Part shown: piece by piece, positions 2,446 to 61,586 of the stretch
Layout of the letters: every line of letters begins with the position of its first letter
Position numbering within the stretch: position 1 is the first letter of the stretch
Assembly (NCBI RefSeq): GCF_026571515.1
Contig: NW_026857783.1
Coordinates: 114,878-178,877, forward strand
DNA from: Ruditapes philippinarum
Taxonomy: Eukaryota
Reading direction: 5' to 3'
Length of the DNA stretch: 64,000 nucleotides
Made by a program: the position numbers and the translations under genes
The notes under the pieces: generated by a model
Database searches by the model: none
What the model saw: only the letters and a program-made list of their open reading frames with translations
Told to the model about the DNA's origin: nothing

Positions 2446-2696
2446 GTAAGTTTTCATCTGGCTAGATAGACAATGTAAGGCATTAAACATATTTGTAAAA
2501 GACAGAAGGAAAGTACGAATTATACCATAAATAATTCATTGTACAACTTTATTTGCATCTCTTTTGAATTTTGAAGGTTTTTTCTGGACATCCATAGTGT
2601 GCTTGTATATATTTTGTATCGTAATTGTTTCATTCGCGTTTGTTTTGCAACATCTATTGACGTAACGCAGATTAAAATGTGCACTCTTATTTTCAG

Positions 2697-3095
2697 AATG
2701 AAAGGATAGAGAAAGGACAGAACAGGTTCTTGCGTCACAGAAACTTCATTTTTCAACGGATTGACATCGCTTTAGTTCTTGCCAATTGCTATCAGATAAG
2801 AACCATTATCTCAGAACCAAACAAACATGAATATTACAAGATACCATTGGGGTTTGCGATAGCTTCAATATGTTTACAGATTTTGTTTACGATACTGATG
2901 GTCATATCTTGGCAAGCAGATAAAAAGTCAATAGACTCTCAAGGCAATATAAAAAAGGCTGAAAGTTTGATAGGCAAGGTCTCGCAATTCATTGCCATGC
3001 TTTTAGTTCTATTTATTGTCATTTCAAACATTGTTGTTGTAGAATTTGGGGCTATGACCAGCAATAGTAAAGGAAATGGAACTGACTTAAGTTGA
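2697..3095 (+). CDS. Ninjurin-like paralogue A, last exon (NERIEKGQNRFLRHRNFIFQRIDIALVLANCYQ...two TM helices...), TGA at 3093-3095
   Basis: Acceptor ttattttcag at 2687-2696. The translation carries the ninjurin signature: an amphipathic helix DIALVLAN, as in human NINJ1 ...MLDIALLMANASQLKAV..., then two hydrophobic helices with ...IVISNIVVVEFG, as in NINJ1 IIVVVNIFITAFGV. The intron position and phase match paralogue C. Confidence 0.8.
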   Translation, partial: NERIEKGQNRFLRHRNFIFQRIDIALVLANCYQIRTIISEPNKHEYYKIPLGFAIASICLQILFTILMVISWQADKKSIDSQGNIKKAESLIGKVSQFIAMLLVLFIVISNIVVVEFGAMTSNSKGNGTDLS

Positions 3096-4744: not shown

Positions 4745-5160
4745 CATTCTATGGTGGCTGATTTGGTACACTTTGCGCGTTGCGTTGTCAATAGCAACAA
4801 CGCAACCTATATCGTTATCGCCTTTTTTTGTCTTGTCGCTAGCGAAACGCGCATTACGGCGCGTTGTCGCACTGTCGTCCTGTCTCCTGTCGTAAGCGAA
4901 GCACGCAAACGGCACGTTGTCGTGCGGTGCGTTGTCGCAATGTCGCCCTGTTGCTTGGCTTATATATACACAAATAGCCAAGCCTAGCGCCACTTTGAAA
5001 TCGCGACAACACGCCGCACGACAAAGCGCCGTTTTGCGTGCTTCGTTACCAACAGGGCTACAAGACGACAGTGCAACAACGTGCCGTTTGGTGCTTTGTT
5101 GTGCTGTCGCTAGCGACAACATAAGGCACAAAAGTGTTCCAAATCAGCCACCATACCTTT
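4745..5160. repeat. Foldback or long inverted-repeat element, GC-rich, with arms of about 200 bp around a centre near 4960-4985
   Basis: The reverse complement of 4990-5160 aligns to 4745-4950. Examples: ccattctatggtggctgatttgg versus ccaaatcagccaccatacc; gtcgctagcgaaacgcgc...ggcacgttgtcgtgcggtgcgttgtcgc versus gcgacaacacgccgcacgacaaagcgcc...gtcgctagcgacaac. The overlapping ORFs in three frames (174, 89 and 85 aa) are artefacts of the palindrome. Confidence 0.8.
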
Positions 5161-7828: not shown

Positions 7829-8063
7829 GAGCCGCGTCATGACAAAACCAACATAATGGGTTTTCGACCAGCATGGATCCAGACCAGCCTGCGCATCCGC
7901 GCAGTCTGATCAGGATCCATGCTGTTCGCTATCAGTTTCTCTACTTGTTATAGGGTTTGTAAGCGAACAGCATGGATCCTGATCAGACTGCGCGTATGCG
8001 CAGGCTGGTCTGGATACATGCTGGTCGCAAACGCATTATGTTGGTTTTGTCATGACGCGGCTC
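7829..8063. mobile_element. Palindromic MITE of about 230 bp, copy 1 of a 4-copy family
   Basis: Terminal inverted repeats gagccgcgtcatgacaaaaccaacataatgggtt...gaccagcatggatccagaccagcctgcgcatccgcgcagtctgatcaggatccatgctgttcgc. The reverse complement of this repeat occupies the other half of the element. Confidence 0.85.
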
Positions 8064-8361
8064 AAATGTATTTCAAAGATTGATAAAATCAACAGAATTG
8101 TATCATTTAAATATTCCAAAAAAACATTTCTTGAGATTAAATTAAATGTTCTTAAAACTTCAAAGCGATTTGATACGAGTTATCATATGATGAATAATAA
8201 TATTTTCTTATAAAATAATTTAATACATGTTATATAAAGGTATGTCATACCTGATCTTGTACCTCACTTAACAAAAACATGTATTATATATAATTATTTC
8301 ATGGTATATTGATACGTATGATACAAAATACTATCAACGTCCTTATTTATGACATAATATG

Positions 8362-8585
8362 GGCCGTGTCATGACAAAACCAACATAATGGGTTTGCGAC
8401 CAACATGGATCAAGACCAGCCTGCGCATCCGTGCAGTCTGATCAGGATTTTTTCAAACCCTATAACAAGTAGAGAAAGTGATAGCGAACAGCATGGATCC
8501 TGATCAGACTGCGCGTAAGCGCTGGCTGGTCTGGATCCATGCTGGTCACAAACCCAATTATGTTGGTTTTGTCGTGACGCGGCTC
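8362..8585. mobile_element. Palindromic MITE, copy 2
   Basis: Same family as 7829-8063, about 90% identical. It lies 300 bp from copy 1. Confidence 0.85.
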
Positions 8586-9328: not shown

Positions 9329-9757
9329 CTATTCTGGTGAGCTTATTTCATTGTGATAATGACTTTCTATACCGAATCCTGCTATGAAAACATTTGAAAC
9401 AATAACAAACAAAACAAGAACGCTTCCAGTCCTATCCAGCCATGTTGCAATTCTTTCCTTTCGTTTCATTTGTGGATCGTCTTCACTGGGTTTCGTCTCT
9501 ATTTGTTTCGTCTCTATTTGTTTCTCTAATGTTTTTTCAACTGACCATATGATGAGCATACAGATTGTGAAGATTACTTGCAGAGTAATGGACATACAAA
9601 TGAATGTTAATATCAGGTAATAGTGCGGATTGTTGTCAGAGGCAATGAGGGCTTTTAGTTGAGACACGTTCGCCATCATCAGAGCCACGTCCATCAGTTG
9701 ATGTATGAAGTTGCGTTTACCGATATATGCATTAGGTGTTGTCACAGGTTCAATGCT
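9329..9757 (-). CDS. Ninjurin-like paralogue B, last exon (SIEPVTTPNAYIGKRNFIHQLMDVALMMANVSQLKALI...two TM helices...)
   Basis: Acceptor cttcag on the minus strand (plus 9758-9763). The core NFIHQLMDVALMMANVSQLK and the second TM helix VLVLFVIVSNVFIAGFG are shared with paralogue C and resemble NINJ1. Stop codon at 9329-9331. Confidence 0.8.
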   Translation of the reverse strand, partial: SIEPVTTPNAYIGKRNFIHQLMDVALMMANVSQLKALIASDNNPHYYLILTFICMSITLQVIFTICMLIIWSVEKTLEKQIETKQIETKPSEDDPQMKRKERIATWLDRTGSVLVLFVIVSNVFIAGFGIESHYHNEISSPE

Positions 9758-9790
9758 CTGAAGAGTAATTTAAAAGTTGATTTATTTAAG

Positions 9791-10000
9791 CAATCAAAAC
9801 TAAGTGTTTTAAGTGTATCTGTTAGAGCAATTAAAACTAAGCGTTATAAGTGTATCTGTTAGGCCAATCAAAACTAAGCGTTATAAGTGTAACTGTTAAC
9901 CAATCAAAACTAAGTGTTACAAGTACTGTAAGAGCAATCAAAACTATGTGTTATAGGTAACTGTTAGAGCAATAAAAAGTAAACGTTATAAGTAACTTTT
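9791..10000. repeat. Tandem repeat with a unit of about 37 bp and about 6 copies, in the intron of ninjurin-like B
   Basis: Units caatcaaaactaagtgtt(a/t)taagtgtatctgttagagc follow one another. Confidence 0.8.
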
Positions 10001-12317: not shown

Positions 12318-12640
12318 TGAATTTGATAGTTCATTGAAAGTTAACGCCCACGTAATATAATTTACATAGTCATTGAAAGTTACCGCCCACGTAATATAAT
12401 TTACATTGTCATTGAAAGTTACCGTCACGTAATACTATTTACATATTCATTGAAAGTTACCGCCCACGTAATACTATTTACATATTCATTGAGAGTTAAC
12501 GCCCACGTACAATACTATTTACATACTTATTGAAAGTCAACGCCCACATTATATAATTTACATATTCATTGAAGGTTTACGCCTGCGTAATGCTGCTGTT
12601 CGTTTACATATTCATTGAAAGTTTAGGCCCGCGTAATGTC
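12318..12640. repeat. Tandem repeat with a 40-bp unit and about 8 copies
   Basis: The unit tcattgaaagttaacgcccacgtaatataatttacatagt recurs. Confidence 0.9.
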
Positions 12641-16765: not shown

Positions 16766-17233
16766 TCAGAGTTGAATTTTCGTTCCATTCATCAAAAGCA
16801 AGAATCGTTCGACAACCTTCGATTCTTTCGGAGATTCTGGATCTCCGTGTTCTTCTACCCCAAATCCAGTAATGAAAACATTAGAAACAATTATCAGAAG
16901 CACTAAAATATTTCCAAATTTGTCTAGTCTTTCGGAAAGAATTCGTCGGCTTTCATCCACTGGGTGATTCTCCTTTGGGGACTCCGCTAGGTGCTCTTGC
17001 AGCTTCTTTTCTATGGACCAAATAATCAACATGCATACTGTGAATACCACTTGCAGCACTATAGAACAACAAATGAACGCCAGGAGAATGAAGTAATATT
17101 TGTCCCCCTTGTCCATAGAGAGAAGAGATTTTAATTGAGACACATTGGCCATCAGGAGAGCCACGTCCATCAGTTGATGAATAAAGTTTCGTTTACCAAC
17201 ATAAATGTTGGGGGCACCGGTACTTTCCAAGTC
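16766..17233 (-). CDS. Ninjurin-like paralogue C, last exon (DLESTGAPNIYVGKRNFIHQLMDVALLMANVSQLKSLL...ILVLLIIVSNVFITGFGVEE...)
   Basis: Acceptor caatttcag on the minus strand (plus 17234-17242). This paralogue gives the best NINJ1 match: KRNFIHQLMDVALLMANVSQLKSL versus human KKSAAESMLDIALLMANASQLKAV, and LIIVSNVFITGFGV versus IIVVVNIFITAFGV. Stop codon at 16766-16768. Confidence 0.85.
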   Translation of the reverse strand, partial: DLESTGAPNIYVGKRNFIHQLMDVALLMANVSQLKSLLSMDKGDKYYFILLAFICCSIVLQVVFTVCMLIIWSIEKKLQEHLAESPKENHPVDESRRILSERLDKFGNILVLLIIVSNVFITGFGVEEHGDPESPKESKVVERFLLLMNGTKIQL

Positions 17234-17399
17234 CTGAAATTGAAAACATTGTTTTAAAATCGGAGTAAAGTATATAGAAAGAGAGAGTGTGCTCACAAAT
17301 TAATTACATCAAACGTAGAAAATCACTTTTCTGGTAAAAAAAAGAAAGATATTATTTCAAACCAATAAAAATCATCCAGTAAAACACTTTAACACCGTT

Positions 17400-23069: not shown

Positions 23070-23623
23070 TCAAGAACAGCTCTTGTCTAATTGCCTTAAA
23101 TCAATAGGTGCCAGATTTTGTTTGTGTATATTACAAGAATGCTTTTTTATATTTCCTGCAACTGACGACGTGTACTCGCACATCGGACATTTAAAAGGCT
23201 TCTCTTTGGTATGCACACGTTCATGCTGTTTTAAAATCGTAACATTGAAGAAACCTTTGCCACATTCTTTGCAAACAAACTTTCTATTCTTATCGAAATG
23301 CCTGCGTTTGTGTGACCGTAATGCAAACTTAGTCTTCAAAACTTTTCCGCAGATGTCACAAACAGACTCCTCTTGTTCATGAACCTTAATTTTATGCTGG
23401 TGTGCTGCTTTTGTAGTCTTAAATAGTTTTCCACAAATTTCACACGGGTGTATATGAAGAGCTTTCAACTCCTCTTCATTTTTACCACATGACAATTCTT
23501 TATGACTTTTGAAGTTTTCGTATTTGGTCATATGTTTGCCACAGGTTTCGCACTGGTAACTGTTCAGACGCCAAATACTATCCATGTGCTGTTTCTCACG
23601 TTTGTGCTTATAAAGGTCTCGAT
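23070..23623 (-). CDS. C2H2 zinc-finger protein, last exon (about 5 complete fingers plus the C-terminal half of a split finger); stop at 23070
   Basis: Repeated C-x2-C-x12-H-x3-5-H units (CEICGKLFKTTKAAHQHKIKVH, CDICGKVLKTKFALRSHKRRH, CKECGKGFFNVTILKQHERVH ...). Acceptor ctacatgcag in phase 1. The leading YRDLYKHKREKQH completes the finger begun by CPICGEEFEG in the upstream exon. Confidence 0.8.
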
Positions 23624-23689
23624 CTGCATGTAGAAAACATAGAAAAGTTATTAAACAATAGAATAAGTACAATCTGTGATCACTTTCTT

Positions 23690-24364
23690 TAGAAATAACA
23701 ATGTATGTTCTTAATTCTACAAATGTTCTTTGCAGTCATTCACTACTCAACATAATGTAATAACCATTTATGTTCTTAATTCTAGAGATGTTCTTTGAAG
23801 TCATTCACTACTCAACATAATGTAATAACCATGAATGTTCTTAATTCTAGAGATGTTCTTAACAAACATTCTCTACTCAACATAATATAATAACCATTTA
23901 TGTTCTTAATTCTACAAATGTTCTTTGAAGTCATTCACTACTCAACATAATGTAATAACCATGAATGTTCTTAATTCTAGAGATGTTCTTTACAAACATT
24001 CTTTACTCAACATAATGTAATAACCATGAATGTTCTTAATTCTAGAGATGTTCTTAACAAACATTCTCTACTCAACATAATATAATAACCATTTATGTTC
24101 TTAATTCTACAAATGTTCTTTGAAGTCATTCACTACTCAACATAATGTAATAACCATGAATGTTCTTAATTCTAGAGATGTTCTTTACAAACATTCTTTA
24201 CTCAACATAATGTAATAACCATGAATGTTCTTAATTCTAGAGATGTTCTTAACAAACATTCTCTACTCAACATAATGTAATAACCATTTATGTTCTTAAT
24301 TCTAGAGATGTTCTTTACAGACATTCACTACTCAACATAATGTAATAACCATTTATGTTCTTAA
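23690..24364. repeat. Satellite with a 65-bp unit (about 10 copies); proximal block of an array split by an insertion
   Basis: The unit ttctacaaatgttctttgaagtcattcactactcaacataatgtaataaccatgaatgttcttaa is repeated head to tail. The block starts 70 bp upstream of the ZNF exon acceptor and lies in the ZNF intron. Confidence 0.9.
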
Positions 24365-26357
24365 GGTGACAACGGAGTCAATTATCACTGAAAATACCTA
24401 AAATGAGATTTTTTGCTTAGTATATTTATCAACCTTTTCTGAACACATTCGTGATTTAATTTTGGAAGCAGTTAGTCCAAAAAATGTGTTTTTAAACGTT
24501 TTAAAACGGTACCTGTACTATTTTTATCTGCTATCGCGTAACCTGTCAATTATCGATAACGCTCCGCCCCCTGTTGAGGCATCAATGAGGGAAATCGGTA
24601 GTTCCATATATGCGTGAATTACCGGTCCATACTGGTCCATACTACTCGTAATTCATGTATCGTACAAATACCGTACATCTTTTATGAATATCGTCTACCT
24701 TTTATTTAGCCTTTTTTATAAAATAAGAAATTGTCGGCCAATGTACGTAACATAATGTATGAAACATAAAATTAAATAATTAAGCATAGCGACAAATCGC
24801 ACGACCACGGGGTTGATTAAAAATATAGTTGCTAAAATATCCATAATGTGTGAAAATAATTTGTCTGTCCCGTTAATCTGATAGATATTACATTGAGTTT
24901 ATGGACTTTTGTACGGATTCAAGGGCTTGCTTTACATTCAACCTCGTTTTCTAACAATGTCAAGTAAAACAACAACAAAAGCAGACAACATTTTTTATGT
25001 GAACGCCTATATGACTTGTGGTAAGGTCTCCCTGACAAATTTCTAAACCATTTTAGGTTGTCTAAGGATGATTATTTCTCTATGAATCAATAAAAAAAGA
25101 TAATAAAATAAATTATCAGTGAATGCTTTGAATAAATTGTTCGCTAGTAAATCGAACACAGTACTAATAAACCTGGGAGAAAGTTTGGAATTTATTGTAT
25201 ATCCCAGTAGAAACTGGATCTCTATGCCGTGCATAGATGATTTCCATGATAATAGAAGTCAAGAAGGTCAGATCATAATGATCGAGTGATACCTTTTATT
25301 TCTATTAAAATATGTGAAGCATTTATATCAATTTGGAGGAAAAAATATATAAAATCCCGTTCTTATTTGTACATCTACCATGGACTTTAAAATACTGTCA
25401 GAAGCTCAGTTTTTTTGTTATTTTAATTTATATTTTAACGGAATTTCATACACGAGTACACAGATAGAGTGACACTGGTATAATATAATAATAATGCTGA
25501 TGATAATAATAATAAACTTTAAATGTGAAACAATTAAATACCCCGCTAGCGGTGCACAAATACGTCCCATTTCCCCCCACCGAGTGCCTCAAATTTTACC
25601 GAAAGTCACGTGACATGTGCAACCGATACCAGACTAACGGTAAATCACGTTAAGATGTGAAGAAATTTCTGTTATAAACTGATATTAATCAGCAACTTTT
25701 TAATTGGTCAGATGTCACTGGGTCATAAAATGTTGTTAGTGTATGTTACCGCAACTTGTGACCCTCTCTGGTGCGATATTTGTGTATTATGTAATTATTT
25801 AGCGTGAAACGTAGGGGTCCGAGAGAGAACAGCCAATTTATGACACTTCGTTTGATGCGGATCGGACTAACTTTGAATCGGCATAACTTTTTTAATAATC
25901 AAGCAATTAACATGCGGTTTAAAGCACATGAAGGGGAATTCATTTACGGAGGGAACCGTATCAGGGATTTTTGTTTGCTCAATCAGCGACTTAATTATCT
26001 TTAATTACGTAATATGTATGGTGAAAAAAGTCGCATAAAATGTTTGACGTTACGTAATATTTTTTTGAGAAAAGATAGACAAAATTTGAGACACGGTTCC
26101 CCAGATATTATAAGTATGTTTATTTTCCAAAAGTTTGATGACACAAAAATAAAAAATGACTTTGATATGACGATTTAAAATTTTAGGATTTTTATTAAAA
26201 ATCAATCATTTACAAAGACATTTTTTTCAAATATGTTATTTTTTATGATGATCAACGACATTTAATGCACAAAGATTAAATAAATAACAATTATTACTAG
26301 AATAAGTTGGTTTAAATGACATTTATGTGATTACCACGGAAAGTGTCTGTTGTCACC
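24365..26357. mobile_element. A 1993-bp TIR element inserted into the satellite; it is flanked by a TTAA target-site duplication and has the 9-bp TIR GGTGACAAC...GTTGTCACC
   Basis: Left junction ...atgttc TTAA|ggtgacaacggag. Right junction ctgttgtcacc|TTAA ttctacaaatg. The satellite unit continues in register across the insertion, with the TTAA of the unit gttcTTAAttcta duplicated. No intact transposase ORF is present, so the element is non-autonomous. Confidence 0.75.
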
Positions 26358-27325
26358 TTAATTCTACAAATGTTCTTTGAAGTCATTCAATACTCAACAT
26401 AATGTAATAACCATTTATGTTCTTAATTCTACAAATGTTCTTTGAAGTCATTCACTACTCAACATAATGTAATAACCATGAATGTTCTTAATTCTAGAGA
26501 TGTTCTTAACAAACATTCTCTACTCAACATAATATAATAACCATTTATGTTCTTAATTCTACAAATGTTCTTTGAAGTCATTCACTACTCAACATAATGT
26601 AATAACCATGAATGTTCTTAATTCTAGAGATGTTCTTTACAAACATTCTTTACTCAACATAATGTAATAACCATGAATGTTCTTAATTCTAGAGATGTTC
26701 TTAACAAACATTCTCTACTCAACATAATATAATAACCATTTATGTTCTTAATTCTACAAATGTTCTTTGAAGTCATTCACTACTCAACATAATGTAATAA
26801 CCATGAATGTTCTTAATTCTAGAGATGTTCTTTACAAACATTCTTTACTCAACATAATGTAATAACCATGAATGTTCTTAATTCTAGAGATGTTCTTAAC
26901 AAACATTCTCTACTCAACATAATGTAATAACCATTTATGTTCTTAATTCTAGAGATGTTCTTTACAGACATTCACTACTCAACATAATGTAATAACCATT
27001 TATGTTCTTAATTCTACAAATGTTCTTTGAAGTCATTCACTACTCAACATAATGTAATAACCATGAATGTTCTTAATTCTAGAGATGTTCTTTACAAACA
27101 TTCTTTACTCAACATAATGTAATAACCATGAATGTTCTTAATTCTAGAGATGTTCTTAACAAACATTCTCTACTCAACATAATATAATAACCATTTATGT
27201 TCTTAATTCTACAAATGTTCTTTGCAGTCATTCACTACTCAACATAATGTAATAACCATGAATGTTCTTTATTCTACAGATGTTCTTTACAGATATTCAC
27301 TACTCAACATATTGTATAACAATGT
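26358..27325. repeat. Satellite with a 65-bp unit (about 15 copies); distal block
   Basis: Same unit as 23690-24364. Confidence 0.9.
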
Positions 27326-27927
27326 TATAATATGTGATCTTTACTTTACACATGTTTGCTAATATACAGACTTTCTCTAGTCATTTATGGATGAAGGTCA
27401 AAGTTAGTCTGGTCTACTGAAAGGTTTTGTCCCAAGGGTTGTTGTGGCCAAGTATGAAGACAATTCAACAAGAGCATAAAAAGTTATAATCAAGGTACAA
27501 GTTTGCGGATGTCAACGCTGACATAACAATACCAGTTAATTGAGTTAATAATGAACAACATAATGATCTTATACAAATACAAATAATGATAGTAAAATAG
27601 CTAGATATTTGCTTCTGTGAGAACAGCCAGTGTTTTAATTGGTCTTTTTCTTGCATATTACATCTAAATCATATACGAGAACTAATATTTTCACACACCA
27701 TTTTTCTTCTAGTACAGGAGTTTATATATTCATTTATAACAGTGTAATAGCGTCCTCCTAGGTATGCAATTCATTCATAATGAACAACTTGCCTTGCACA
27801 GGGGACTGAAAATTGGGATTTTCTGTAACCATAGAACAATTCTGATTAATATGCAAGGAAAGTTATACTAGACATGGGGTGTCAGGCTACCACTTAATTT
27901 ACAGACTATTACAATACCAGTACTTAC

Positions 27928-37544: not shown

Positions 37545-37915
37545 AAAGTTCCTTATAAATGCATATACCTCTATAGGTGACGTATTCCATTATCCCTGGA
37601 ATAATTTTAAAATAGTAAATGCACACTCTCTTTGCGACGTTATTCATACACTCAAACTCGTGAACATTTCAAAATAGGTAATGCACACTCTCTCGGTGAC
37701 GTCATCTATGCACTCTAGACTCATTGACATTATCAAAATAGTTAATGCAAACTCTCGAGCTCTCGGTGACGTCATCTATGCACTCTAGACTCATGGAAAA
37801 TATCAAAATAGTTCATGTATTCTCCAGATGACGTTATTCATACAGTCATGAATAATTTTAAATACTAAATGCACACTCTTTAGGTTACGTAATTCATACA
37901 CTGATAATAATTTCA
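37545..37915. repeat. Tandem repeat with a unit of about 61 bp and about 6 copies; two units carry the palindrome TGACGTCA
   Basis: Units aaatagtaaatgcacactctct..g.gacgt.at.catacactc...tcaaaat follow one another. TGACGTCA occurs at 37697-37704 and 37767-37774. The array lies immediately 3' of the ASB-like gene. Confidence 0.85.
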
Positions 37916-37996: not shown

Positions 37997-39649
37997 TCAT
38001 TCCACATTGTTGATGTACTTTTTCAAAGCTATCGGTATTGACAATTCAACCACAGCCGTGGATTTCCATTCACATGCTTGCAAAATACTTAAGCGACAAA
38101 GAACTTTTAAGTTCCAAACACTAGAAGATCGTTTTTGCATCTCGTCTTTGCATATTTTAAAAAGCTTCCTTTGTATATCATTGGTCGGTTTCCCGCCAAA
38201 TTCGATCTTACACGCGCTACTGACAGACGTCAATGTCATATTACCAAGGAGTGTATTCACTATTTCATTAACATACTCCAGTTGTGCAGCTTCGTCTGAT
38301 TTTGTTATCTTTTCAAACTTTTCAGAGTGCATTAAAATTTCGTCACAAAATGTGTTTAACGGAAACTTTCCGGACAAATTTTCATTGGGATCAGAACCGT
38401 TCTGGATCAACAGTCTAAAAGTAGTGATACTGCGTTCATCCAATCCAAGTACTATAGAAACTTTCAGAAATGCATGTAAAGCGTTCCCTATGAAACCATT
38501 TGGTCCGTCACCAACGCTGCCCTTCACTGAAAGATCGGAACCGTGGCGTAGTAACGTCTCCGTGCATTTGGTGATAAAACGTCTAATATTTGTGACGTCA
38601 TCTTCAAAATGTCTTACTAATGTTAAAACATTGTCATACAAGCAGTGGAGCGCGGACGAGTACGCTAATCGTCCAAATGCTGTTTGGATGTGCAATGCTT
38701 CGTGTTCCTTCTCAAATTTGACCTCATCAAAGTTCGGATCCACTCCTGCGTTCAAGAGAACAACCATGCACGCTGCTATATATGGATACGACTTTCCGAA
38801 ATCCGACGCGGGTGTATGGCTTAGTAAGCTATACAATGGATAAGTACGAAATGGAATATCAGACACTGGATTTTGTTTATACTTCAACAAGACGGAGGTA
38901 ACTGTCAAAAGAGATTCGTACCATTCCTTTTTAAATGATAGACTGTACGAGTATAGTACATGGTAAAGGTTCATACCACTGAAAAGTGAAGTAAGTGAAG
39001 GATTGCATCTTAAAAGAACATCTAGGCACTCTGCATTTGCTAATTTCAAGGCAGCGCCTACTGCAGACTTAAGGTCGTCCGACGTTGTCCTTTCTTTAAG
39101 CAATAAGCGTAGAGCAGACGGCGAGTTACTGGCACATGCTGCGGATAAGTGATTTTCTGAACCAAACTCCAGTTTGGTTTTAACTGACGACACATCCAAA
39201 ATAGATCTTACACACGAAGTGTGCCCACTTAGAGCGGCTACATCTAGCGGTGTCACCATACTTGTCCCGCCAGGGGAATGTAGTGGCGTCTCCGTCGGGG
39301 GATTCACCCACTTGAATTTACTTTTCTTTGTAGAATAATCACGTGGTCTCTCTTGTAAAATCATACTTACAATTGTTCTACTTCCAAAGTTTGCTGCCAG
39401 ATGTATATAAGAATGAAATTTTGGTTCGTGTGGCGGTTTAAAATGACCGAGGGCAAATATGATTCCGACGGCCTCAATGTTTTCTGACATAATGGCATGA
39501 TGTAAAATATCGTAGCCATCTTTATCTGTCCAGGAAAGCAACTGATCTCTGTCGCACTTTTCGAAACATCCTCTTAGTCTAGAGACATCTTCTGTAGTAT
39601 TTATTTTCAAATAAAGCGTAGATTTCAAGTCGTTTATTTTCGTCGACAT
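37997..39649 (-). CDS. Ankyrin-repeat and SOCS-box (ASB-like) protein in a single uninterrupted ORF of about 550 aa; an alternative upstream ATG lies at 39679
   Basis: The uninterrupted ORF is 560 codons. It has several ANK-like repeats (DGYDILHHAIMSENIEAVGIIFALG; TPLDVAALSGHTSCVRSIL; LKSAVGAALKLANAECLDVLLRCNP; YPYIAACMVVLLNAGVDPN; GNALHAFLKVSIVLG..LLIQNGSDPN). The C-terminus matches the SOCS-box BC and Cul boxes (SVWNLKVLCRLSI...LSIPIALKKYI). No introns are needed. Confidence 0.8.
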   Translation of the reverse strand: MSTKINDLKSTLYLKINTTEDVSRLRGCFEKCDRDQLLSWTDKDGYDILHHAIMSENIEAVGIIFALGHFKPPHEPKFHSYIHLAANFGSRTIVSMILQERPRDYSTKKSKFKWVNPPTETPLHSPGGTSMVTPLDVAALSGHTSCVRSILDVSSVKTKLEFGSENHLSAACASNSPSALRLLLKERTTSDDLKSAVGAALKLANAECLDVLLRCNPSLTSLFSGMNLYHVLYSYSLSFKKEWYESLLTVTSVLLKYKQNPVSDIPFRTYPLYSLLSHTPASDFGKSYPYIAACMVVLLNAGVDPNFDEVKFEKEHEALHIQTAFGRLAYSSALHCLYDNVLTLVRHFEDDVTNIRRFITKCTETLLRHGSDLSVKGSVGDGPNGFIGNALHAFLKVSIVLGLDERSITTFRLLIQNGSDPNENLSGKFPLNTFCDEILMHSEKFEKITKSDEAAQLEYVNEIVNTLLGNMTLTSVSSACKIEFGGKPTNDIQRKLFKICKDEMQKRSSSVWNLKVLCRLSILQACEWKSTAVVELSIPIALKKYINNVE

Positions 39650-40877
39650 GATTGTGCGCACTACAATTATTTGAAGCACATTGAACAGTAAAGAACTATC
39701 CCTCGATATCTTTCAAGCGTCATTGACTACGCAATAAAACGATATATTCCAGATGTATGCAATTGCCTTTTAGCCTTAGCCAATCTCTTTAAAGTTTGCT
39801 TCAACAGTTCTGTTGATTTTTTCATTCATTGCTTGATGTGAATGATCAACACGAGTAATTCCAACTCTATTTAGAACGAAAACTATGAAAATTCCATAAT
39901 CTACACTAGATCGATAAGCGTTTATTAAACATACAACTAATCAAGCGTCTACGAATCTAAACAAGTTGACCAGAAGGATAGTTCTTTACATGTATTATTA
40001 CGCAAGATAGAAATAAAATAACATAAATATTTAAGCCTTACCATGCACAGTATGTACCGTAATTCATGAATATGTAGGGGGAGATGGATTCTGTATTATT
40101 ATCATATTAAAAACATCTGCAGTGATGCTTTAAATCGACTTGACCTACATTTGCTTTTAGTTATACACAGATTTTAACTGCTTTTATGTTTATTTTATGA
40201 TTTTATATTTTCATTATAAATGGGTGTAACTGTCAGCCTACATGTATATATCCCGAGGCACCGTCACAACCGTGTAGTATTATATCCTTATTTTAAATTA
40301 TTAATTTTGAATAAGTGTATAGATCTATATATATCTGATGCAAAAAAAAATATGTGAATTTTAAAAAAAAGTTTGCTTCCAAAATGCTTGTATGATATAA
40401 ATATGGTAATTTATTGCCTTAAAGCGAATGGCGCATGCACAAAATTGCTAAACGGATAAAACTCTACTTAAAATAGCAAAATAATATTTTATTTATATAA
40501 ATACATTATTCATGTGTATTAAATAACAGAGACATTCTATGTTACAACTTTTTCGGGAATCAACCATATAATAATGGAACCAATATAATTTTACCGTTGA
40601 TTAATTTTTTAAAAATATTTCATAACTTTAACGCCCTTATAATATATTATATATACTAAGGGAATTGATCTTTCAGGTGAACGCCCTAGCTTACACTAAA
40701 TATTTTACGTAAATACTTGAATAGTGATCAATAAAACATTCTCACTAAAAATGAATATGTTTATACTTAATTAGTAACCGTTATTTGGAACACACTTGTG
40801 ATAAGTATATACATTGTACATTAATACTTGAACAGTGATCATTCAAGATCTTTAGAGAATAATTTAATTTGACTGTT

Positions 40878-41905: not shown

Positions 41906-42376
41906 TCAGATTGACAAAGCGAAATCAGGAACAACATCGCAAGACGGTCGTTTCTTTTCCAAGTCAGTTTCTTTCTTTCCAAATATAGAAACGAGTTTTT
42001 TCGAGACAGTCATCAGAGAGCTCCTCCGCCGTCGTAGTATCGTTGATCTTTGTTGTTGAGTTATTTTTGCATCTCTTAATAATGCCTGATAAGCAATGCT
42101 GATTGGCATAAACACATCAGCTGCCGAAACCTCGTAAAACTGGCAGCCATATTCTAGCGCGAGCTCGTGACCTACATCTACACCAACTTCTCGTCTGTGT
42201 TCGAGATCTCGTTTGTTAGCAAGAAGCAGCATTGGAACGATGAATGGGGATTTCATCTTGTGAAGAGAGTGAATAATGTGTCGAGCTACTTCAAATGTCT
42301 CTTTTACACAAATATCATAAATCACTATAAATCCATCTGCCCATTGTACATGAGACTCGGACGGATTATTTTTTCC
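41906..42376 (-). CDS. RERG: RERG-like Ras-family small GTPase, last exon (GKNNPSESHVQWADGFIVIYDI...LLLANKRDL...YEVSA...), with no CAAX box
   Basis: Acceptor cactgtttcag in phase 0. It carries the G4 motif NKRD and the G5 motif EVSA. ESHVQWADGFIVIYDICVKETFEVA resembles vertebrate RERG ..[22 protein letters not shown]. Stop codon at 41906. The first 37 residues of the supplied 191-aa ORF are intronic (TCAA)n translation. Confidence 0.8.
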   Translation of the reverse strand, partial: GKNNPSESHVQWADGFIVIYDICVKETFEVARHIIHSLHKMKSPFIVPMLLLANKRDLEHRREVGVDVGHELALEYGCQFYEVSAADVFMPISIAYQALLRDAKITQQQRSTILRRRRSSLMTVSKKLVSIFGKKETDLEKKRPSCDVVPDFALSI

Positions 42377-42394
42377 CTGAAACAGTGAATAAGC

Positions 42395-42600
42395 ATGATT
42401 GATTGATTGATTGATTGATTGGTTGGTTGGTTGATTGCTTGCTTGCTTGATTGATTGATTGATTGATTGACTGACTGACACACTGACACACTGATTGGTT
42501 TACTGATTGGTTGATTGATTGATTGAGTGAGTGAGTGAGTGGTTGACTTATTGATTAATTGATTGATTGATTGATTAAGTGAGTGGGTGAGTGAGTGAGT
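42395..42600. repeat. (CAATCAAT)n/(CACT)n compound microsatellite in RERG-like intron 3
   Basis: The region reads gattgattgattggttggttgattgcttgcttg...gagtgagtgagtg. Confidence 0.9.
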
Positions 42601-42973
42601 GATAATATAATTATGATGTTGGTTGTCAGAAAAGAGGCATTGTGCTCACCGTCAAATACATTGCCATTTGAGCAAAATATGAACATGCATTGCCATTTGA
42701 ATAGTAAAAGGACAGTTCATTTACGTTTGTGTAAACCAAAAATGTATTTCCATTTGAGTAAAAAAGAAAAAATATATTGCCGTTGAACGAAACAAAGGGA
42801 TGTAAATACTGACATTTTAGTAAAAATGTAATGCATTACAAAACGGACATATTTTGCTATTTGAATAAAAACGGGAAATATATTGCCCGTTTAAGTAAAT
42901 AAGGAATAAAATGTATTGCAATAGCTTTTTTTACAATTTGAGTAAAACAAGATTAATCAAAAATAAGTCATAC

Positions 42974-43938: not shown

Positions 43939-44433
43939 CTGAAAAAAATAAAAAGAGACAGCATTGTAAAGAGGATATTCATTTTTCTCTCTAAATACAG
44001 AATTAATTTCCATCTAGTGGTATGAAAATAAATTTCATAAGTGGCGGTAAAATATGATACTTTTCATACCACAAGATGAAAATATATCTTGTATTTATAG
44101 AAAAACTTGAATTTTCTGTTTAGTATACATGTATACATTTTCTTATTTTGAAATTACAATTTGGGGGAAAAAAATCCGTTAAATTTTGTGTACTGGCAGA
44201 GTTTAGGAGAAAGTAATCCAGCAAGACACCAGTGAAAACATGGAAAATATGTTTTACTGCAGTGAAAAATAATTTTCTACAACAATATTTTTCAATATTT
44301 CATTTATTAGAATATAATGAAGAATGATTCTGACGTTTTTTATCTTTAATTATTGAGTCTGAATTATTCAGAATGCATCGGGTAATGATCTACTTCTGAT
44401 ATCACGGTATATAAGTCAAACTATAAAATATAT

Positions 44434-44664
44434 GAGCCGCGTCATGACAAACCCAACATAATGGGTTTGCGACCAGCATGGATCCAGACCAGCCTGCGCA
44501 TCCGCGCAGTCTGATCAGGATCCATGCTGTTCGCTGTCAGTTTCTCTACTTGTAATAGGATTTGTAAACGATCAGCATGGATCCTGACTGCGCGGATGCG
44601 CAGACTGGTCTGAATCCATACTGGGCGCAAACCCATTATGTTGGTTTTGTCGTGACGCGGCTCA
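44434..44664. mobile_element. Palindromic MITE, copy 4 (in RERG-like intron 1)
   Basis: Same family as 7829-8063. The flanks read tatga|gccgcg...cgcggc|tcata. Confidence 0.85.
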
Positions 44665-45654
44665 TATGTATTTGAAATGAAACTACAACAGATCTATTGT
44701 AAAACATCAATGGTTTTCGTATATCAACATTCTATCAAGTTTACCATCATCTATTGAAAAAATCTCTACAAAAAAAATCTACAAAACATACAAACAAGAA
44801 TTATGTAAACACTTTGTCAACTATTTATATATACTTACAGAATGTTTGCTAATACATATTTTTCTATTTATGAACATAAGCATTTAAGAAAAGAAATAAG
44901 AAAATACAATTAAGTCAAACGGTAAACATTAACTCAATTTTGGTCGACTTATTTAAAAGTCCATAGATCAATATTTGTACAAATCAATTAATCAAGTCAA
45001 TAATAATATTGTGTCCCATGGGGGATACGCAGTTTTGATATGTTGGATTAAAGTTTTAGACAGTCTTAGCTATCACGATAACATTATATAATTACGGAAG
45101 TTAATGAGGTTATAATACTTTATAACAGCTGTCCTATCTCCAACTATCAACGTTCAAGTAGACGCAGAATATCTGAAATGCCGCAGAATATACAAACTTA
45201 TCACTTTTCAAATATGAAATTTTAATTAACGAGCCGGTGTGAAGATATGTTGATGTTTTATGCATGTATATTTTTTTCAACAACTTGAGATAAAGTTTAA
45301 GTTTCGGGCTCTAGATATGTTAGAATACACATGAATTTCTTTTTACAGTTAACTGAGGAAAACAGCACACCAAAAACAACATTTTTTTTTATTTGGGGAT
45401 CGAACTTGCTCATGATAAATTTAGAGAATTTCTAAGCACCAACTGAATAAATAAGTGCCTTTTGATAATTCAAAACATGAATTGATTGCAATCACATTAA
45501 TCACAAAGTTATGTATAGACCTACAATTTATACCCATTACATAGTCATACCACCGTGTTATAAATATATACACAAGTAACACCCGACCCCAAGGAGAACG
45601 GGAAATAAGTGTTTAGCATATTCCGGTTGTCCTCGTATTAGTTACTCAGTTAAT

Positions 45655-48660: not shown

Positions 48661-51660
48661 TTCTTCTTCTTCTTCCAGTATAAGAGCCGGGATCCAAAAG
48701 GAACGTAATGAGGCTCTGCGAAACTATGTACATGGTGAGATGGAACACTCTTCCTCTCAGCGATAAAAGTTGTAAAAACTGATAAAAATTTATTTACAGA
48801 GACGTTGTGAAGTGAATTTAGATGGAGGCCGGCAGGCGCGCGCGGAAAGCATCCAACGTTTCCGCGGCGGTGACTGTTGATGCCAGGCCATTCCAGTCAA
48901 CAATTGTCCTGGGGAAGAAGGTATTTGTATACATCCTGCCAGTGGTGCGTTCTTGGTAGAAACGTATACGTGTTCTACTGTCACTGGTGTTCTTCTTGGA
49001 TTGGTTACTCAGTGGTAGGTACTTGTCCTTGGGGATGTCTACTAGGTCATGTTGAATGCGATAGAGCATGCCTAACCTTGCTTCCTTCCTTCTCTGTTGG
49101 AGGGTGTTCCAATCCAGGCTCCTCAGCATTCCTGTCATACATCCGGGTGTTCTGGATTTATAGTCATTTTTGACAAAACTGGCTGCACTTTTCTGGATCT
49201 GCTCAAGTGAATCTATGTGTGTCTGAAGATGAGGATCCCAAACCGTTGCTGCATATTCAAGACCTGGGCGTACAAAAGTTGCTGCTTTCAGTTGTGGTGT
49301 ACAATCCTTCATGTTTCTCCTCACAAATCCCAGTGTTCTGTTTCCTTTGGCAGCTACATTCTGTATGTGCTTGTCCCATGAGAGGTTGTTGGAGACACTT
49401 ACACCAAGGTATTTGCTGTGGTCCACTGATTGCAGGACTTGGCCATGAAGTATATATTGTTCCAGTGCTTCAAGATCCTGCTGCAGCCTTGCCTTGCCTT
49501 GTCATTTGTACTCTTGATGACCCTGTACATGAGGCTGTCGTCCGCAAAGAGTCGGATGTCAGATGATGTGCAGTCAGGCATGTTATTTATGAAGGCCAGG
49601 AATAAAAGTGGACCTAGTACGGTTCCCTGGGGAACGCCAGATATAACATCATCTTGGTCAGACTTGGTGCCTTCAAGGACTACCTGTTGCTTGCGGTTAC
49701 TCAGGAAGGTTTTGATCCACTGGCTTAAGGGACCTCTCACGCCATAGAAATCTAGCTTGTAGAGGAACTTTGTCGAACGCCTTCTCGAAGTCGAGTAGAA
49801 TGGCGTCTACTTTGTTACCCGCTGAGAGATACTTCGCGATGGTGTCAACTGTTGTTAAAATTTGAGTTTCGCATGAGCGACGTTTCCTGAAACCATGCTG
49901 GTTGTCTCTCAGTATATGGTTGGTGTCAAAGTGTGACATTATATTACTGTGGACAATGTGTTCCAGGATCTTGCAGGTGATCGATGTAAGTGAGACGGGC
50001 CTATAGTTGGCCGGGATGTGTGTATCTCCCTTTTTGTAGATGGGTACTACATTTGCATCTCTCCAGTCCTGAGGTACTTCAGAAGAGTCTAGGGAAAACT
50101 GGAAAAGGCGGGTAAGTATTGGTGCCAGTTCAGCAGCAGCTAAATGGAGGAACCGGGTCGGAATCTCATCAGGGCCTGCAGCTTTAAATTTATGGCAGTT
50201 AAGATTTTGGAGTAATTTCCGTACTCCTGGTTCCCTAACTGTAATAGATGGCATGCTGGGATGGCTACTTGGTCCCTTGTCAGGTAAGTTCTCTGTGGGT
50301 TCTCGGGTGAAGACAGAGCTGAACTGCTGGTTCAGTATACTGGCCTTGCTCTTGCTGTCACTCCGAATGAAACCAGCAATATTCTTCAGGGGCGCTACAC
50401 CAACTATTTCCTGACCCTTGCTCTTGATGTAGGAATAGAACTTCTTTTTGTTGGCTGGACTACTGTCACTGATGATGTCTTGCATATACTGCCGGCTTGC
50501 TCGTCTTGTGTGCCACTGGACTTCTTTTTGCAGTCGCTTGTAACGATCTCTGTCTCGTTTGGAGTTTGATTTCCTAGCTTTCTTAAAGGCTTTTTGTTTC
50601 CGTCGAATGCTTCTTTTGATGGTGGAATTCATCCATGGATTTGTATATTTAGAACAAGTGAGTTTAGATGGTACTCTCTTGGTTATAATTTCTGTGATGT
50701 TTGTTTTAAAATCATGCCACATCGATTCAATGTCTGTGTATGGGGTGTTCTGGAATTCGGTTGCTAGAGTACGGGTGTCTTCTTTGATGGCATTAAGGTC
50801 CGCCTTCTTCCATAGTAGTATTTTCCGTCTTGCTGGGCGTGGATGGTATGTTTGGATCGAAGTGTCGAGGAGCACAATGTCATGATCGCTGTTCCCTATC
50901 GAGGGCATAGGTTTACATCTCATCTTGAAGCTGGAGTGGGTGGTCAGGATCAGATCTAGTATCTTGTCTTTCCTGGTTGGAAAATCCACTTATTGTTCTA
51001 GGTTGGAGTCAGCTATCATATCTAGGAAGTGTTTGCTGGTGCTCTGTGGGTACTGGGATCCAGATATATCAAGAGTTTTCCAGTCTATGTCTGGTAAATT
51101 GAAGTCGCCCCCAATAATAAATATGCTGTTCTTCGATTTGGACTTCAAACTGCTAATCTCTTCTGTTGATTTTGAGAGGTATTCAGAATCAGTCCTGTTT
51201 GGTGGTCTGTAGTAGGTTGCTTTTGTGATGTTTTTGGATCCTGACTTGATGGTGCCACTAACCAGTTCTGTGTTACTGCTCTTGTAGATGTCGTGTAGCA
51301 GGAGATGTTGTTTTGCCGCTATAAGGACTCCACCATGGGGGTTTTCAGGTCTGTCTCTCCGCTGTATGTCATAGCCAAGGTCACTTGGCAGTATTTCGCT
51401 AGAGGCAACTTGACTGTCCAGCCAGGTTTCTGTGCCTAAAATAACATCTGGGTCGCAGTCTAGTATGATTGACTCAAGGAGTTTCCCTTTCTTACGTAGG
51501 CTCTGGAAGTTTATATTAAGAAGGCGTAGCATGTTTTTCTTCGCGGTGGATTTGGCTGAGGTTTGCTGAGGCTTAGGTGAGGAGGTAATTATGTTTGCAC
51601 CAGAGAGGTTGAAGGTAGAGTTGCTGTGTTCAGTACTCACGCTAGATCTGGACTGCATTG
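48661..51660 (-). mobile_element. Non-LTR retrotransposon (APE endonuclease plus reverse transcriptase; CR1/L2/RTE-like), decayed, about 3 kb
   Basis: Collinear minus-strand ORFs. The 222-aa ORF at 50990-51658 has APE-type endonuclease motifs (ILGTETWLD, GGDFN). The 430-aa ORF at 49697-50989 and the 113-aa ORF at 49399-49740 hold the RT, with FRKRRSCETQI...LDFEKAFDKV and VPQGTVLGPLLF...FADDSLMY. The 202-aa ORF at 48818-49426 is the C-terminal domain. Adjacent ORFs are separated by one stop and two frameshifts. A (GAA)5 microsatellite tail lies at the element's 3' end (plus 48661-48675). Confidence 0.85.
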
Positions 51661-55949: not shown

Positions 55950-58235
55950 CTAAATAGTAAATACCCAAATATACCCAATTACACCCAAATATACCCAAAT
56001 ATAGCAATATTCATTTTTGTTTGTATAAAATACAGATTATAATTTGAAAATGAATCAATATTAATAAAAATAATATTACTTAGTCAGCTATAACTTTCAT
56101 TCATTCCGTTAAAATGGGCAGTTTAAATGTTGTAAGAAAATAAACTTGTGACATTTGCTTATCTAGGTTCATTACTGAATATACTTGCAAATTAAAATAA
56201 AGATATGATAATATTTGTTGTCTACATTTAATTTTTAGCTCACCTGAGCATGCTCAGGGTGAGCTTTTAGGATCGATGATTGTCCGTCGTCCGTCCGTCC
56301 GTCGTCCGTTCACATTTTGTTGTTAACACTCTAGCTGTCGCATTTTTGCCTCAATCATCATCAAACTTGGTCAGGATGCTTATCTAGTTGATAGCTCAGA
56401 TGAGTTCGAACATGGGTCATCTCGGATGAAAAACTAGGTCACAAGAGCTAAAAATAGAAAAACCTTGTTAACACTCTAGAGGTCTGGTCACATTTTTGCC
56501 TCAATCATCATCAAACTTGGTCAGGATGTTTGTCTAGGTGATAGCTCGGATGAGTTCGAACATGGGTCATCTCGGATGAAAAAGTAGGTCACCGGAACTA
56601 CAAATAGAAAAACCTTGTTAACACTCTAGCGGTCACATTTTTGTCTCAATCATCATCAAACTTGGTCAGGATGCTTGTCTAGGTTACAGATAGCTCGGAT
56701 GAGTTCGAACATGGGTCATCTCAGATGAAAAACTAGGTCACCGGAGCTAAAAATAGAAAAACCTTGTTAACACTCCAGCGGTCACATTTTTGCCTCAATC
56801 ATCATCAAACTTGGTCAGGATGCTTGTCTAGGTTACAGATAGCTCGGATGAGTTCGAACATGGGTCATCTCGGATGAAAAAGTAGGTCACTGGAGCTAAA
56901 AATAGAAAAACCTTGTTAACACTCTAGCAGTCACATTTTTGCATCAATCATCATCAAACTTGGTCAAGATGCTTGTCTAGGTGATAGCTTGGATGAAGTT
57001 GAACATGAGTAATCCTGGATGAAAACCTAGGTCACCGGAGCTAAAAATATAAAAACCTTGTTAACACTCCAGCAGTCACATTTTTGCCTCAATCATCATC
57101 AAACTTGGTCAGGATGCTTATCTAGTTGATAGCTCGGATGAGTTCGAACATGGGTCATCTCGGATGAAAAACTAGGTCACAAGAGCTAAAAATAGAAAAA
57201 CCTTGTTAACACTCTAGAGTAGGTCACAATTTTGCCTCAATCATCATCAAACTTGGTAAGGATGTTTGTCTAGGTGATAGCTTGGATGAGTTGGAACATG
57301 GGTCATCTCGGATGAAAAACTAGGTCACAGGAGCTAAAAATAGAAAACTCTTGTTAACACTCTAGTGGCTCTTGTTTTGATCCAAATATCCTGTAAATTG
57401 GTCTGAAAGTTTGTTTTGATGATTTCTAAGTCAAGTTCGAACATGGGTCATCTTGGATGAAAAACTAGGTCACACCGCCCAAATATGGAAAAACCTTGTT
57501 AACATTCTAGTGGTCACATTTTCGACTCAATTATCATCAAACTTGGTCAGGATGCTTGTCTAGGTAATTGCTCGGATGAGTTCGAAATCGCATGTGAAAC
57601 TAGGTCACTGGAGCTAAAAATAGAAAAATCTTGTTAACACTCTAGTTGCTACTGTTTTGATCCAAATATCCTGGAAATTGGTCTGAAAGTTTGTTTTGAT
57701 GATTTCTAGGTCAAGTTTGAATATGGGTCACCTGGGTAAAAAACTAGGTCACACTGCTCAAATATGGTTAATCCTTGTTAACACTGTAGTGGTCACATTT
57801 TTCACTCATCTGTCATGAGACTTGGTCAGAATGCTTGTCTAGGTAATTGTTTGGATGAGTTTGATGGGTCAGGTGAGCGATCTAGGGCCATCATGGCCCT
57901 CTTGTTTAGAGTATTATTAAAATTTTGTTGAAATTTCATACAAGTGTCCATCACATTATTTTTTTTTTGAAAATTTAATATAGCTTTAATGAAGTGTACT
58001 GTACTGTATTTGGGTATATTTTGGTTCAAAACACAATGATAGGAAAATGTATATTTGGGTATGTTTGTCTTTGTTTGATCAATCTCAGTGAAAGTGTATA
58101 TTGTAATTCATAATTAAAACAGCACTTTTTTTTGTATAAAACATTCATTTTTGGTATATTTGAGCAATATTTGGGTATATTTGGGCAATATTGGCAATAT
58201 TTAGGTGTATTTGGGTATATTTGGGTATTTCATGC
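55950..58235. mobile_element. Foldback-type element of about 2.3 kb: TIRs of about 80 bp flank a 150-bp tandem array of about 11 copies; it lies in PARP4-like intron 1
   Basis: Left TIR aaatacccaaatatacccaattacacccaaatatacccaaatatagcaatattcatttttg. Right TIR caaaaatgaatgtt..gagcaatatttgggtatatttgggcaatatt..ggtgtatttgggtatatttgggtatttc. The internal array at 56300-57890 repeats the unit ttgttaacactctagcggtcacatttttgcctcaatcatcatcaaacttggtcaggatgcttgtctagg..gatagctcggatgagttcgaacatgggtcatctcggatgaaaaactaggtcaccggagctaaaaatagaaaaacc. A perfect 12-bp-stem hairpin gctcacctgagcatgctcagggtgagc at 56238-56265 precedes the array. Confidence 0.8.
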
Positions 58236-59350: not shown

Positions 59351-59524
59351 GTAACTTTTATCTTAAGCAAGTTATACTATTAAACTTTTGACAGAATAAA
59401 AATTTTGTGCATCAGTTGTTTTTTTTTGACATGCTATCATGCTATTATATTCTTGATTGTTGAGAATTTTCTTCCTACTGAAAAAATGTCATACTTTAAA
59501 ACTTTGGAGTTTATGCTTGAGCTC

Positions 59525-61586
59525 AGACATGATGTTGTACTGGAGAACTGACATGATGTTGTACTGGAGAACTGACATGATGTTGTACTGGAGAACTGAC
59601 ATGATGTTATACTGGAGATCTGACATGATATTATACTGGAGGTAAGACATGATGTTATACTGGAGGTCTGACATGATGTTATACTGGAGGTCTGACATGA
59701 TGTTATACTGGAGGTCTGACATGATGTTATACTGGAGGTCTGATATGATGTTATACTGGAGATCTGAGATGATGTTATACTGGAGTTCTGACATGATGTT
59801 ATACTGGAGGTCTGACGTGACATTATACTGGAGTTCTGACATGATGTTAGACTGGAGGTAAGACATGATGTTATACTGGAGGTCTGAGATGATGTTATAC
59901 TGGAGATCTGACATCTTTTATACTGGAGTTCTGACATGATGTTATACTGGAGGTCTGACATGATATTATATTGGGATTCTGATATGATGTTATACTGGAG
60001 TTCTGATATGATGTTATACTGGAAGTCTGACATGATGTTATACTGGAGGTCTGACATGATGTTATACTGGAGGTCTGACATGATGTTATACTGGAGTTCT
60101 GACATGATGTTATACTGAAGGTCTGACATGATGTTATACGGAGATCTGACATGATGTTATACGGGAGATCTGACATGATGTTATACGGGAGGTCTGACAT
60201 GATGTTATACGAGAGGTCTGACATGATGTTACATTAGAGGTCTGACATGATGTTATACTGGAGGTCTGACATGATGTTATACTGGAGGTCTGACATGATG
60301 TTATACTGGAGGTCTGACATGATGTTATACTGGAGTTCTGACATGATGTTATACGGGAGGTCTGACATGATGTTATACGGGAGGTCTGACATGATGTTAT
60401 ACTGGAGGTCTGACATGATGTTATACGAGAGGTCTGACATGATGTTACATTAGAGGTCTGACATGATGTTACATTAGAGGTCTGACATGATGTTATACTG
60501 GAGATCTGACATGATGTTATACTGGAAGTCTGACATGATGTTATACTGGAGGTCTGACATGATGTTATACTGGAGGTCTGACATGATGTTATACTGGAGT
60601 TCTGACATGATGTTATACTGAAGGTCTGACATGATGTTATACGGGAGATCTGACATGATGTTATACGGGAGATCTGACATGATGTTATACGGGAGGTCTG
60701 ACATGATGTTATACGAGAGGTCTGACATGATGTTACATTAGAGGTCTGACAATGATGTTATACGGGAGGTCTGACATGATGTTATACGGAGGTCTGACAT
60801 GATGTTATACGAGAGGTCTGACATGATGTTACATTAGAGGTCTGACATGATGTTACATTAGAGGTCTGACATGATGTTATACTGGAGGTCTGACATGATG
60901 TTATACTGAAGGTCTGACATGATGTTACACTGGAGTTCTGACATGATGTGATACTGGAGGTCTGACATGATGTTATACGAGAGGTCTGACATGATGTTTA
61001 TACGGGAGGTCTGACATGATGTTACATTAGAGGTCTGACATGATGTTATACTGGAGAACTGACATGATGTTAGATAGGAGATCTAACATAATGTCATACT
61101 GGAGAACTGACATGATGTTAGACAGGAGATCTGACATGATGTTATACTGAAGGTCAGATATGATGTTAGACAGGAGATCTGACATAATGTTTTACTGGAG
61201 GTCTGACATAATGTTATACTGGAGGTCTGACATAATGTTGTTCTGGAGGTCAGACATGATGTTGTTCTGGAGATCTGACATGATGTTGTACTGGAGAACT
61301 GACATGATGTTGTACTGGAGAACTGACATGATGTTGTACTGGAGAACTGACATGATGTTATACTGGAGGTCTGACATAATTAGACATAATGTTGTTCTGG
61401 AGATCTGACATGATGTTGTACTAGAGAACTGACATGATGTTGCACTGGAGAACTGACATGATGTTATACTTGAGGTCTGACATAATGTTATACTGGAGGT
61501 CTGACATAATTAGACATAATGTTGTTCTGGAGATCTGACATGATGTTGTACTGGAGAACTGACATGATGTTGTACTGGAGATCTGA
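59525..61586. repeat. 24-bp minisatellite of about 86 copies spanning about 2.06 kb, in PARP4-like intron 2
   Basis: The unit gacatgatgtt(a/g)tactggag(g/a/t)(t/a)ct recurs with subfamilies TATACTGGAGGTCT, TGTACTGGAGAACT and TATACGGGAGATCT. All supplied ORFs within it (MMLYWRSD.. and MSDLQYNI..) are repeat translations. Confidence 0.95.

Follow-up and report, generated by a model that had tools for sequence, protein, structure and literature searches.

The window, a 64,000-nucleotide stretch of a Ruditapes philippinarum contig, contains a C2H2 zinc-finger gene on the minus strand with an intron (23624..27927, 4304 bp, phase 1) that is largely filled by a short satellite array and a 1993-bp insert. 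The intron was delimited by its splice sites, by Pfam matches in the flanking exons and by two homologues (P0001 and P0002). On the minus strand, the upstream exon ends in AAGGAT and the intron begins GTAAGT at the donor (27928/27927), while the intron ends in ctacatgcag and the next exon begins AT at the acceptor (23624/23623). Joining the exons restores a zinc finger (CPICGEEFEGYRDLYKHKREKQH), and zinc-finger Pfam families match both sides of the junction. The terminal zinc-finger exon (23070..23623, minus strand), identified by Pfam, begins 70 bp from the satellite edge; the acceptor lies at that same distance, and the splice signals are undisturbed. Array and insert together measure 3632 bp, or 84% of the 4304-bp intron. 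With the insertion the intron grew from about 2.3 kb to 4.3 kb, its splice sites untouched, a change that does not imply a function.

An ankyrin-repeat ORF in the window (37997-39679, 560 aa) shares 96% identity with a Ruditapes philippinarum protein and 84% with one from Mercenaria mercenaria, which marks the host as a venerid clam. In Mercenaria (locus L002) the order Ras-ankyrin is preserved, and the zinc-finger exons, the satellite and the insert are absent within 10 kb. The contig that gives the best match to the adjacent zinc-finger exon (L001, 74% identical) includes 550 bp of intron upstream of that exon, and this stretch lacks the satellite, which argues that the array is lineage-specific. 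L001 is too distant for use as an empty site.

Tandem Repeats Finder (TRF) and a unit-by-unit layout resolved the satellite into 25 units with a period of 65 bp and a higher-order period of 195 bp. The left block (23694..24364) accounts for 10.3 units of 65 bp and follows the 195-bp higher-order period, and the right block (26358..27325) consists of 14.9 units of the same satellite; these blocks, like the insert, its flanking TTAA copies and the paralogue described below, are given without strand. At the 195-bp period the copies match at 94-96%, versus 88-89% for adjacent 65-bp units (TRF). The array thus has the properties of satellite DNA, with head-to-tail units of constant length and a higher-order period whose copies are more alike than neighbouring units. 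Removing the insert and one TTAA yields 25 units in exact 65-bp register, and the unit that spans the junction does not differ from a normal one. A 650-bp (10-unit) duplication lies within the array and leaves an exact 605-bp run at a 650-bp lag. The flanks of the array are unrelated unique sequence that does not resemble the satellite, and neither Helitron-type boxes nor a microsatellite was found adjoining it. The possibility that the array edges hold degenerate units, or that a direct repeat flanks them, was rejected, as the flank scores fall within those of shuffled controls.

The insert (24365..26357, 1993 bp) is a non-coding, TIR-bearing element with a GC content of 32%, equal to that of the window. 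Its 5' terminal inverted repeat is GGTGACAAC (24365..24373, plus strand), which begins with GG (RR), and its 3' terminal inverted repeat is GTTGTCACC (26349..26357, minus strand), which finishes with CC (YY). Over 9 bp these two sequences are a perfect inverted repeat, and when the comparison is extended to 13 positions, 12 of them match. Further inside than the terminal 9-13 bp, the insert ends show marginal likeness in inverted orientation (z 1.7-2.6), and long degenerate terminal repeats were rejected on these values. A copy of TTAA adjoins each end: the left copy (24361..24364) comprises the last four bases of the left satellite block and the right copy (26358..26361) the first four bases of the right block. 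An earlier note on this DNA had described a single array split by a precise 1993-bp insertion, with perfect inverted termini and TTAA on both sides, and each of these elements is borne out by our analysis.

We estimate the chance of a perfect 9-bp inverted repeat at two breakpoints fixed independently by the satellite phase at ~1e-5, given the local base composition. When the whole window was scanned blind for TTAA-flanked perfect inverted repeats of at least 9 bp, the insert pair alone was recovered, where 0.38 pairs were expected by chance. Because of these 0.38 chance pairs per window, the inverted repeat would be unconvincing alone, and its weight comes from its coincidence with the break in the satellite. 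Further occurrences of GGTGACAAC at 12031 and of TTGTCACC at 29208 in the window are without an adjacent TTAA.

The longest ORF in the insert spans 71 aa from stop to stop, or 66 aa if a start codon is required. A six-frame search of Pfam (E up to 1) found no match, including no decayed transposase; comparison with Rfam at E up to 1 likewise gave no match, a tRNA search returned none, and neither direct nor tandem repeats were found inside the insert. Without coding capacity the insert is therefore non-autonomous, in keeping with what had been concluded previously from the lack of a transposase ORF.

Searches for relatives were negative throughout. Within the window, blastn with the insert gave short AT-rich chance matches only and no second copy. 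Exact-pattern scans with both termini and the satellite found zero matches in viral, metagenome and prokaryote genome contigs, and a search with 16 concatenated insert reading frames, aimed at spurious ORFs on Logan contigs, found zero matches among 5.8 billion proteins. A verbatim search of paper texts for the sequence also yielded zero matches.

The array provides its own empty site. Over 605 bp, the restored insertion site (23788-24364 plus 26362-26389) shows 100% identity to an uninterrupted paralogue at 26435..27039, 650 bp farther along the array, and the identical run extends 28 bp past the insertion point. At the paralogous position (27008-27011) there is a single TTAA and no insert. 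Comparison of the empty site, with one TTAA, and the filled site, with two, shows a gain of 1997 bp at the locus, composed of the 1993-bp insert and the second TTAA. With this paralogue in the array, 24365-26357 cannot be original unique sequence that satellite happens to flank on either side, an outcome that the earlier note had named as fatal to its reading, and the case for a precise insertion is strengthened. We consider it nearly certain that the event was a transposon insertion.

The simplest order of events places the array duplication first and the insertion later. Both were probably recent on an evolutionary scale, because the duplicated copies are undiverged over 605 bp. A repetitive target that carries its own empty site thus allows insertion, duplication and their relative timing to be read from one haplotype. 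The event itself is an ordinary one, and the value of the insert lies chiefly in the clean worked example that it offers.

The length of the target-site duplication bears directly on classification. Since TTAA reads the same on both strands, the junction fits three symmetric arrangements: a 4-bp TTAA duplication around GG...CC termini, a 2-bp TA duplication around AGG...CCT termini, and a 0-bp duplication around AAGG...CCTT termini. The earlier note leaves this ambiguity out of account. We rejected the last of these, which is without a known mechanism. The junction of a single copy accommodates a 4-bp TTAA and a 2-bp TA duplication alike. The previous description of a "textbook" TTAA duplication is accurate in that TTAA flanks both ends and overstated in that, given the palindrome, a duplicated TA of 2 bp between termini AGGTGACAAC...GTTGTCACCT would explain the junction as well. 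The composition of the satellite is informative here, since each 65-bp unit contains TTAA once and TA seven times. For an element that targets TA, landing within T-TA-A would be a 1-in-7 coincidence, and for one that targets TTAA it is expected, which suggests that 4 bp rather than 2 bp were duplicated.

Two further classes were rejected on the structure of the junction. A PIF/Harbinger element would leave a 3-bp TWA duplication, and the triplets next to symmetric GG...CC termini, TAA and TTA, are not the same; a Harbinger-type 3-bp duplication would need termini offset by one base, hence asymmetric. Helitrons have 5'-TC...CTRR-3' ends, insert between A and T and show neither duplication nor TIR, whereas the insert has GGTG...CACC ends, inverted repeats and a duplication.

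The pairing of TTAA with GG...CC termini points to the Kolobok superfamily. Kolobok elements make TTAA-specific 4-bp duplications and have 5'-RR...YY-3' termini, unlike piggyBac, and their hosts include molluscs, Mercenaria among them (PMC9587614). Both features are present at the locus: TTAA at 24361-24364 and 26358-26361 corresponds to the single TTAA at 27008-27011, in a palindrome that also permits the TA reading, and the GG...CC termini conform to RR...YY, which as a 2-base signature is weak. There is precedent for an assignment of this kind, as the Xenopus T2-MITEs were placed in Kolobok by TTAA and RR termini (PMC6004289). Among full-length XKol elements, purine-purine termini (e.g. AGGACATGTCAACCCC) occur in 10 out of 10, and nine of the ten keep an intact TTAA at either end, the exception having ATAA as its right-hand copy (PMC6004289).

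The distribution of Kolobok within molluscs is also relevant. The superfamily is nearly confined to bivalves in this phylum (PMC10294476), and a vesicomyid (venerid-order) clam Kolobok consensus in the accessible part of the same source begins GGGG (PMC10294476). Curated autonomous families number 332 for Tc1/mariner, 43 for Kolobok, 27 for piggyBac, 14 for Sola2 and 8 for Sola1 (PMC10294476), and the resulting ratio of about 8:1 between curated bivalve Tc1/mariner and Kolobok families counts against Kolobok (PMC10294476). For non-autonomous elements, the Repbase rule asks for the same duplication length and for agreement at terminal positions 1-11 with no more than one mismatch (PMC4455052). 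Neither the terminal 9-11 bases nor the GGTGAC start had a curated counterpart among the KolobokP consensus sequences or within the available portion of the bivalve library. With no curated consensus of like terminal bases in these collections, the insert is not placed by the Repbase rule (PMC4455052).

Comparison of the candidate superfamilies nonetheless favours Kolobok, since the insert lacks a defining feature of piggyBac, the ends are atypical of Tc1/mariner, and both testable features of Kolobok are present. On the basis of its termini and flanks, we therefore lean towards interpreting the insert as a non-autonomous cut-and-paste DNA transposon of the Kolobok superfamily, of the canonical type that targets and duplicates TTAA. 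An autonomous relative at another genomic locus would presumably supply the transposase in trans. The transposase would bind the short inverted termini and excise the element, which would then integrate at the sole TTAA of one 65-bp satellite unit, and staggered cleavage followed by gap repair would leave the TTAA duplicated.

The TA reading of the junction corresponds to a Tc1/mariner-type non-autonomous element that would run from 24364 to 26358 (1995 bp), have AGGTGACAAC...GTTGTCACCT as its termini and have duplicated the 2-bp TA at the centre of TTAA. The junction arithmetic works equally well in this case, as gttcT, TA, the element, TA and Attcta in succession restore gttcTTAAttcta, and taking AGG...CCT as the termini is compatible with the TA duplication of Tc1/mariner MITE-like elements. 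With its 332 curated families, Tc1/mariner is by far the richest bivalve superfamily (PMC10294476). An element of this type would begin AGGTG, however, and in the accessible set of about 20 curated bivalve consensus sequences none starts with AGGT, whereas 7 start with CAGT (PMC10294476). The terminal bases are thus atypical of the superfamily, and the T-TA-A context would be the 1-in-7 coincidence noted above. Tc1-like elements favour A-TA-T over T-TA-A contexts. Overall, a Tc1/mariner origin strikes us as unlikely.

We regard as unlikely the proposal that the insert represents an undescribed TTAA-targeting family of venerid clams that is still or was very recently active, whether a new lineage within Kolobok or a new superfamily with GGTGACAAC termini. 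Recent activity is argued from entry after an array duplication whose copies are still undiverged over 605 bp, and from the intact termini and duplication. Such a family, if active, might be of interest for molluscan transposon tools; the insert data do not show activity. The alternative that a TTAA-targeting element came from a different or undescribed superfamily, for example Sola with its 4-bp duplications or a new lineage, appears distinctly unlikely. Termini without a counterpart in the KolobokP set and the available portion of the curated bivalve library would fit this alternative, as would the absence of relatives among the 5.8 billion proteins and the viral, metagenome and prokaryote contigs, and Sola1 and Sola2 both occur in bivalves (PMC10294476). 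Against it, the two observed features are already covered by Kolobok.

The earlier note had assigned the insert to the piggyBac superfamily while recognizing that its termini do not begin with CCC as in canonical piggyBac. The latter observation is correct, and the assignment finds no support in our analysis: the termini are GG...CC rather than CCC...GGG, and TTAA combined with RR...YY is the Kolobok signature. A non-autonomous piggyBac-superfamily element with non-canonical termini would account for the TTAA at both ends and the one TTAA of the empty paralogue, given that piggyBac transposase duplicates TTAA on integration, and non-autonomous piggyBac elements likewise have short TIRs. Every mollusc surveyed has piggyBac, and 27 bivalve families of it have been curated (PMC10294476). 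Yet it is exactly this difference in termini that separates piggyBac from Kolobok (PMC9587614), both of the curated bivalve piggyBac consensus sequences visible in the accessible part of the source begin CCC(T) (PMC10294476), and the six-frame Pfam comparison found no DDE_Tnp_1_7 remnant in the insert. We therefore judge a piggyBac origin improbable. TTAA does not imply piggyBac, and for bivalve elements with purine-purine termini Kolobok is the better default, and a likely misclassification is thereby corrected.

An origin other than transposition, whether as unique intronic sequence lying between satellites by chance, an assembly chimera or a microhomology-repaired insertion, would suit the single known copy and the lack of anything similar in the window, in viral, metagenome and prokaryote contigs or among proteins, but is hardly credible in view of the 65-bp and 195-bp phases, which hold exactly from one side of the gap to the other, the perfect 605-bp identity of the restored site to its uninterrupted paralogue, the perfect 9-bp inverted repeat precisely at both breakpoints (p ~1e-5), and the exact 4-bp duplication.

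The setting of the putative Kolobok insertion resembles that described in oysters. In the Crassostrea satellitome, short arrays are scattered through gene-rich DNA (PMC8268682), and the clam array is similarly short (1.6 kb), although it differs from those of the oysters in having no adjoining Helitron/Helentron boxes or microsatellite (PMC8268682). Short intronic satellite arrays of this kind offer one TTAA target per 65-bp unit.

A comparison with described Kolobok groups reveals both likenesses and differences. KolobokP elements of Mercenaria and other molluscs share the GG start, and some of their terminal repeats begin ggtgtgacacc, which is a loose resemblance only. They differ in possessing long terminal direct repeats, each with inverted repeats, in duplications of 3-5 bp that are not TTAA-specific, and in solo terminal repeats of ~450 bp. 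As the insert contains no direct repeat families, we rejected its membership in KolobokP. The T2-MITEs differ from the insert in their AGGRR motif, where the insert has GGTGACAAC, and in length, with 1993 bp being far longer than is typical of MITEs. The insert nevertheless shares with canonical Kolobok elements and T2-MITEs a TTAA on both sides, GG...CC (RR...YY) ends, short TIRs and non-coding content, and its host belongs to the bivalves, among which Kolobok is common.

Three exons or paralogues of the Ninjurin family (Pfam accession PF04923) are clustered within less than 15 kb in mixed orientations, at 2679-3095 (+), 9329-9745 (-) and 16766-17296 (-). A Ras-family exon ORF lies at 41906-42481 (-), and the Ras-to-ankyrin gene order is common to the window and Mercenaria. 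The 5' end of this ORF stays open across microsatellite sequence, (TGAT)n/(TGAG)n at 42396-42602, and consequently encodes a spurious N-terminal 'QSINQSIN' tract.

Mobile elements are also represented. A LINE with endonuclease (Exo_endo_phos) and reverse transcriptase domains occupies 48818-51658 (-), where GC content is 42%, versus 33% window-wide, and is split by frameshifts or stops into several ORFs. We further found TA-flanked inverted-repeat pairs with repeats of at least 10 bp to be over-represented, with 21 observed against 6.5 expected. Candidate MITEs with TA on both flanks and perfect inverted termini of 12-18 bp were identified at 4750-5154, 7942-8470, 8037-8386 and 44431-44665; the third, a 347-bp candidate (TGTTGGTTTTGTCATGAC), sits within the second, which spans 526 bp.

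Short euchromatic tandem arrays are unusually abundant in the window. Approximately 86 copies of a 24-bp minisatellite (TTATACTGGAGGTCTGACATGATG) extend over 59511-61588, giving way to longer sub-periods of 82-130 bp at the 3' end and giving rise to spurious long minus-strand ORFs. Further short arrays are found at 296-702 (periods of 76/152 bp), 9789-9993 (37 bp), 12326-12591 (39/77 bp) and 37609-37817 (70 bp). At 56320-57861, 10.6 copies of a 145-bp satellite form an array that has a 438-bp higher-order period and lies between a (ATACCCAAAT)n microsatellite (55961-56003) and a (TTTGGGTATA)n microsatellite (58149-58228) that are inverted relative to each other. The whole structure, 55961-58228, looks like a candidate foldback or MITE-like carrier with tandem repeats at its centre.

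In its layout, an array inside inverted microsatellites, this structure resembles carriers with central tandem repeats known from bivalves. Oyster satellites are reported to follow a scattered pattern (PMC8268682), and the many short euchromatic arrays of the window are consistent with it.
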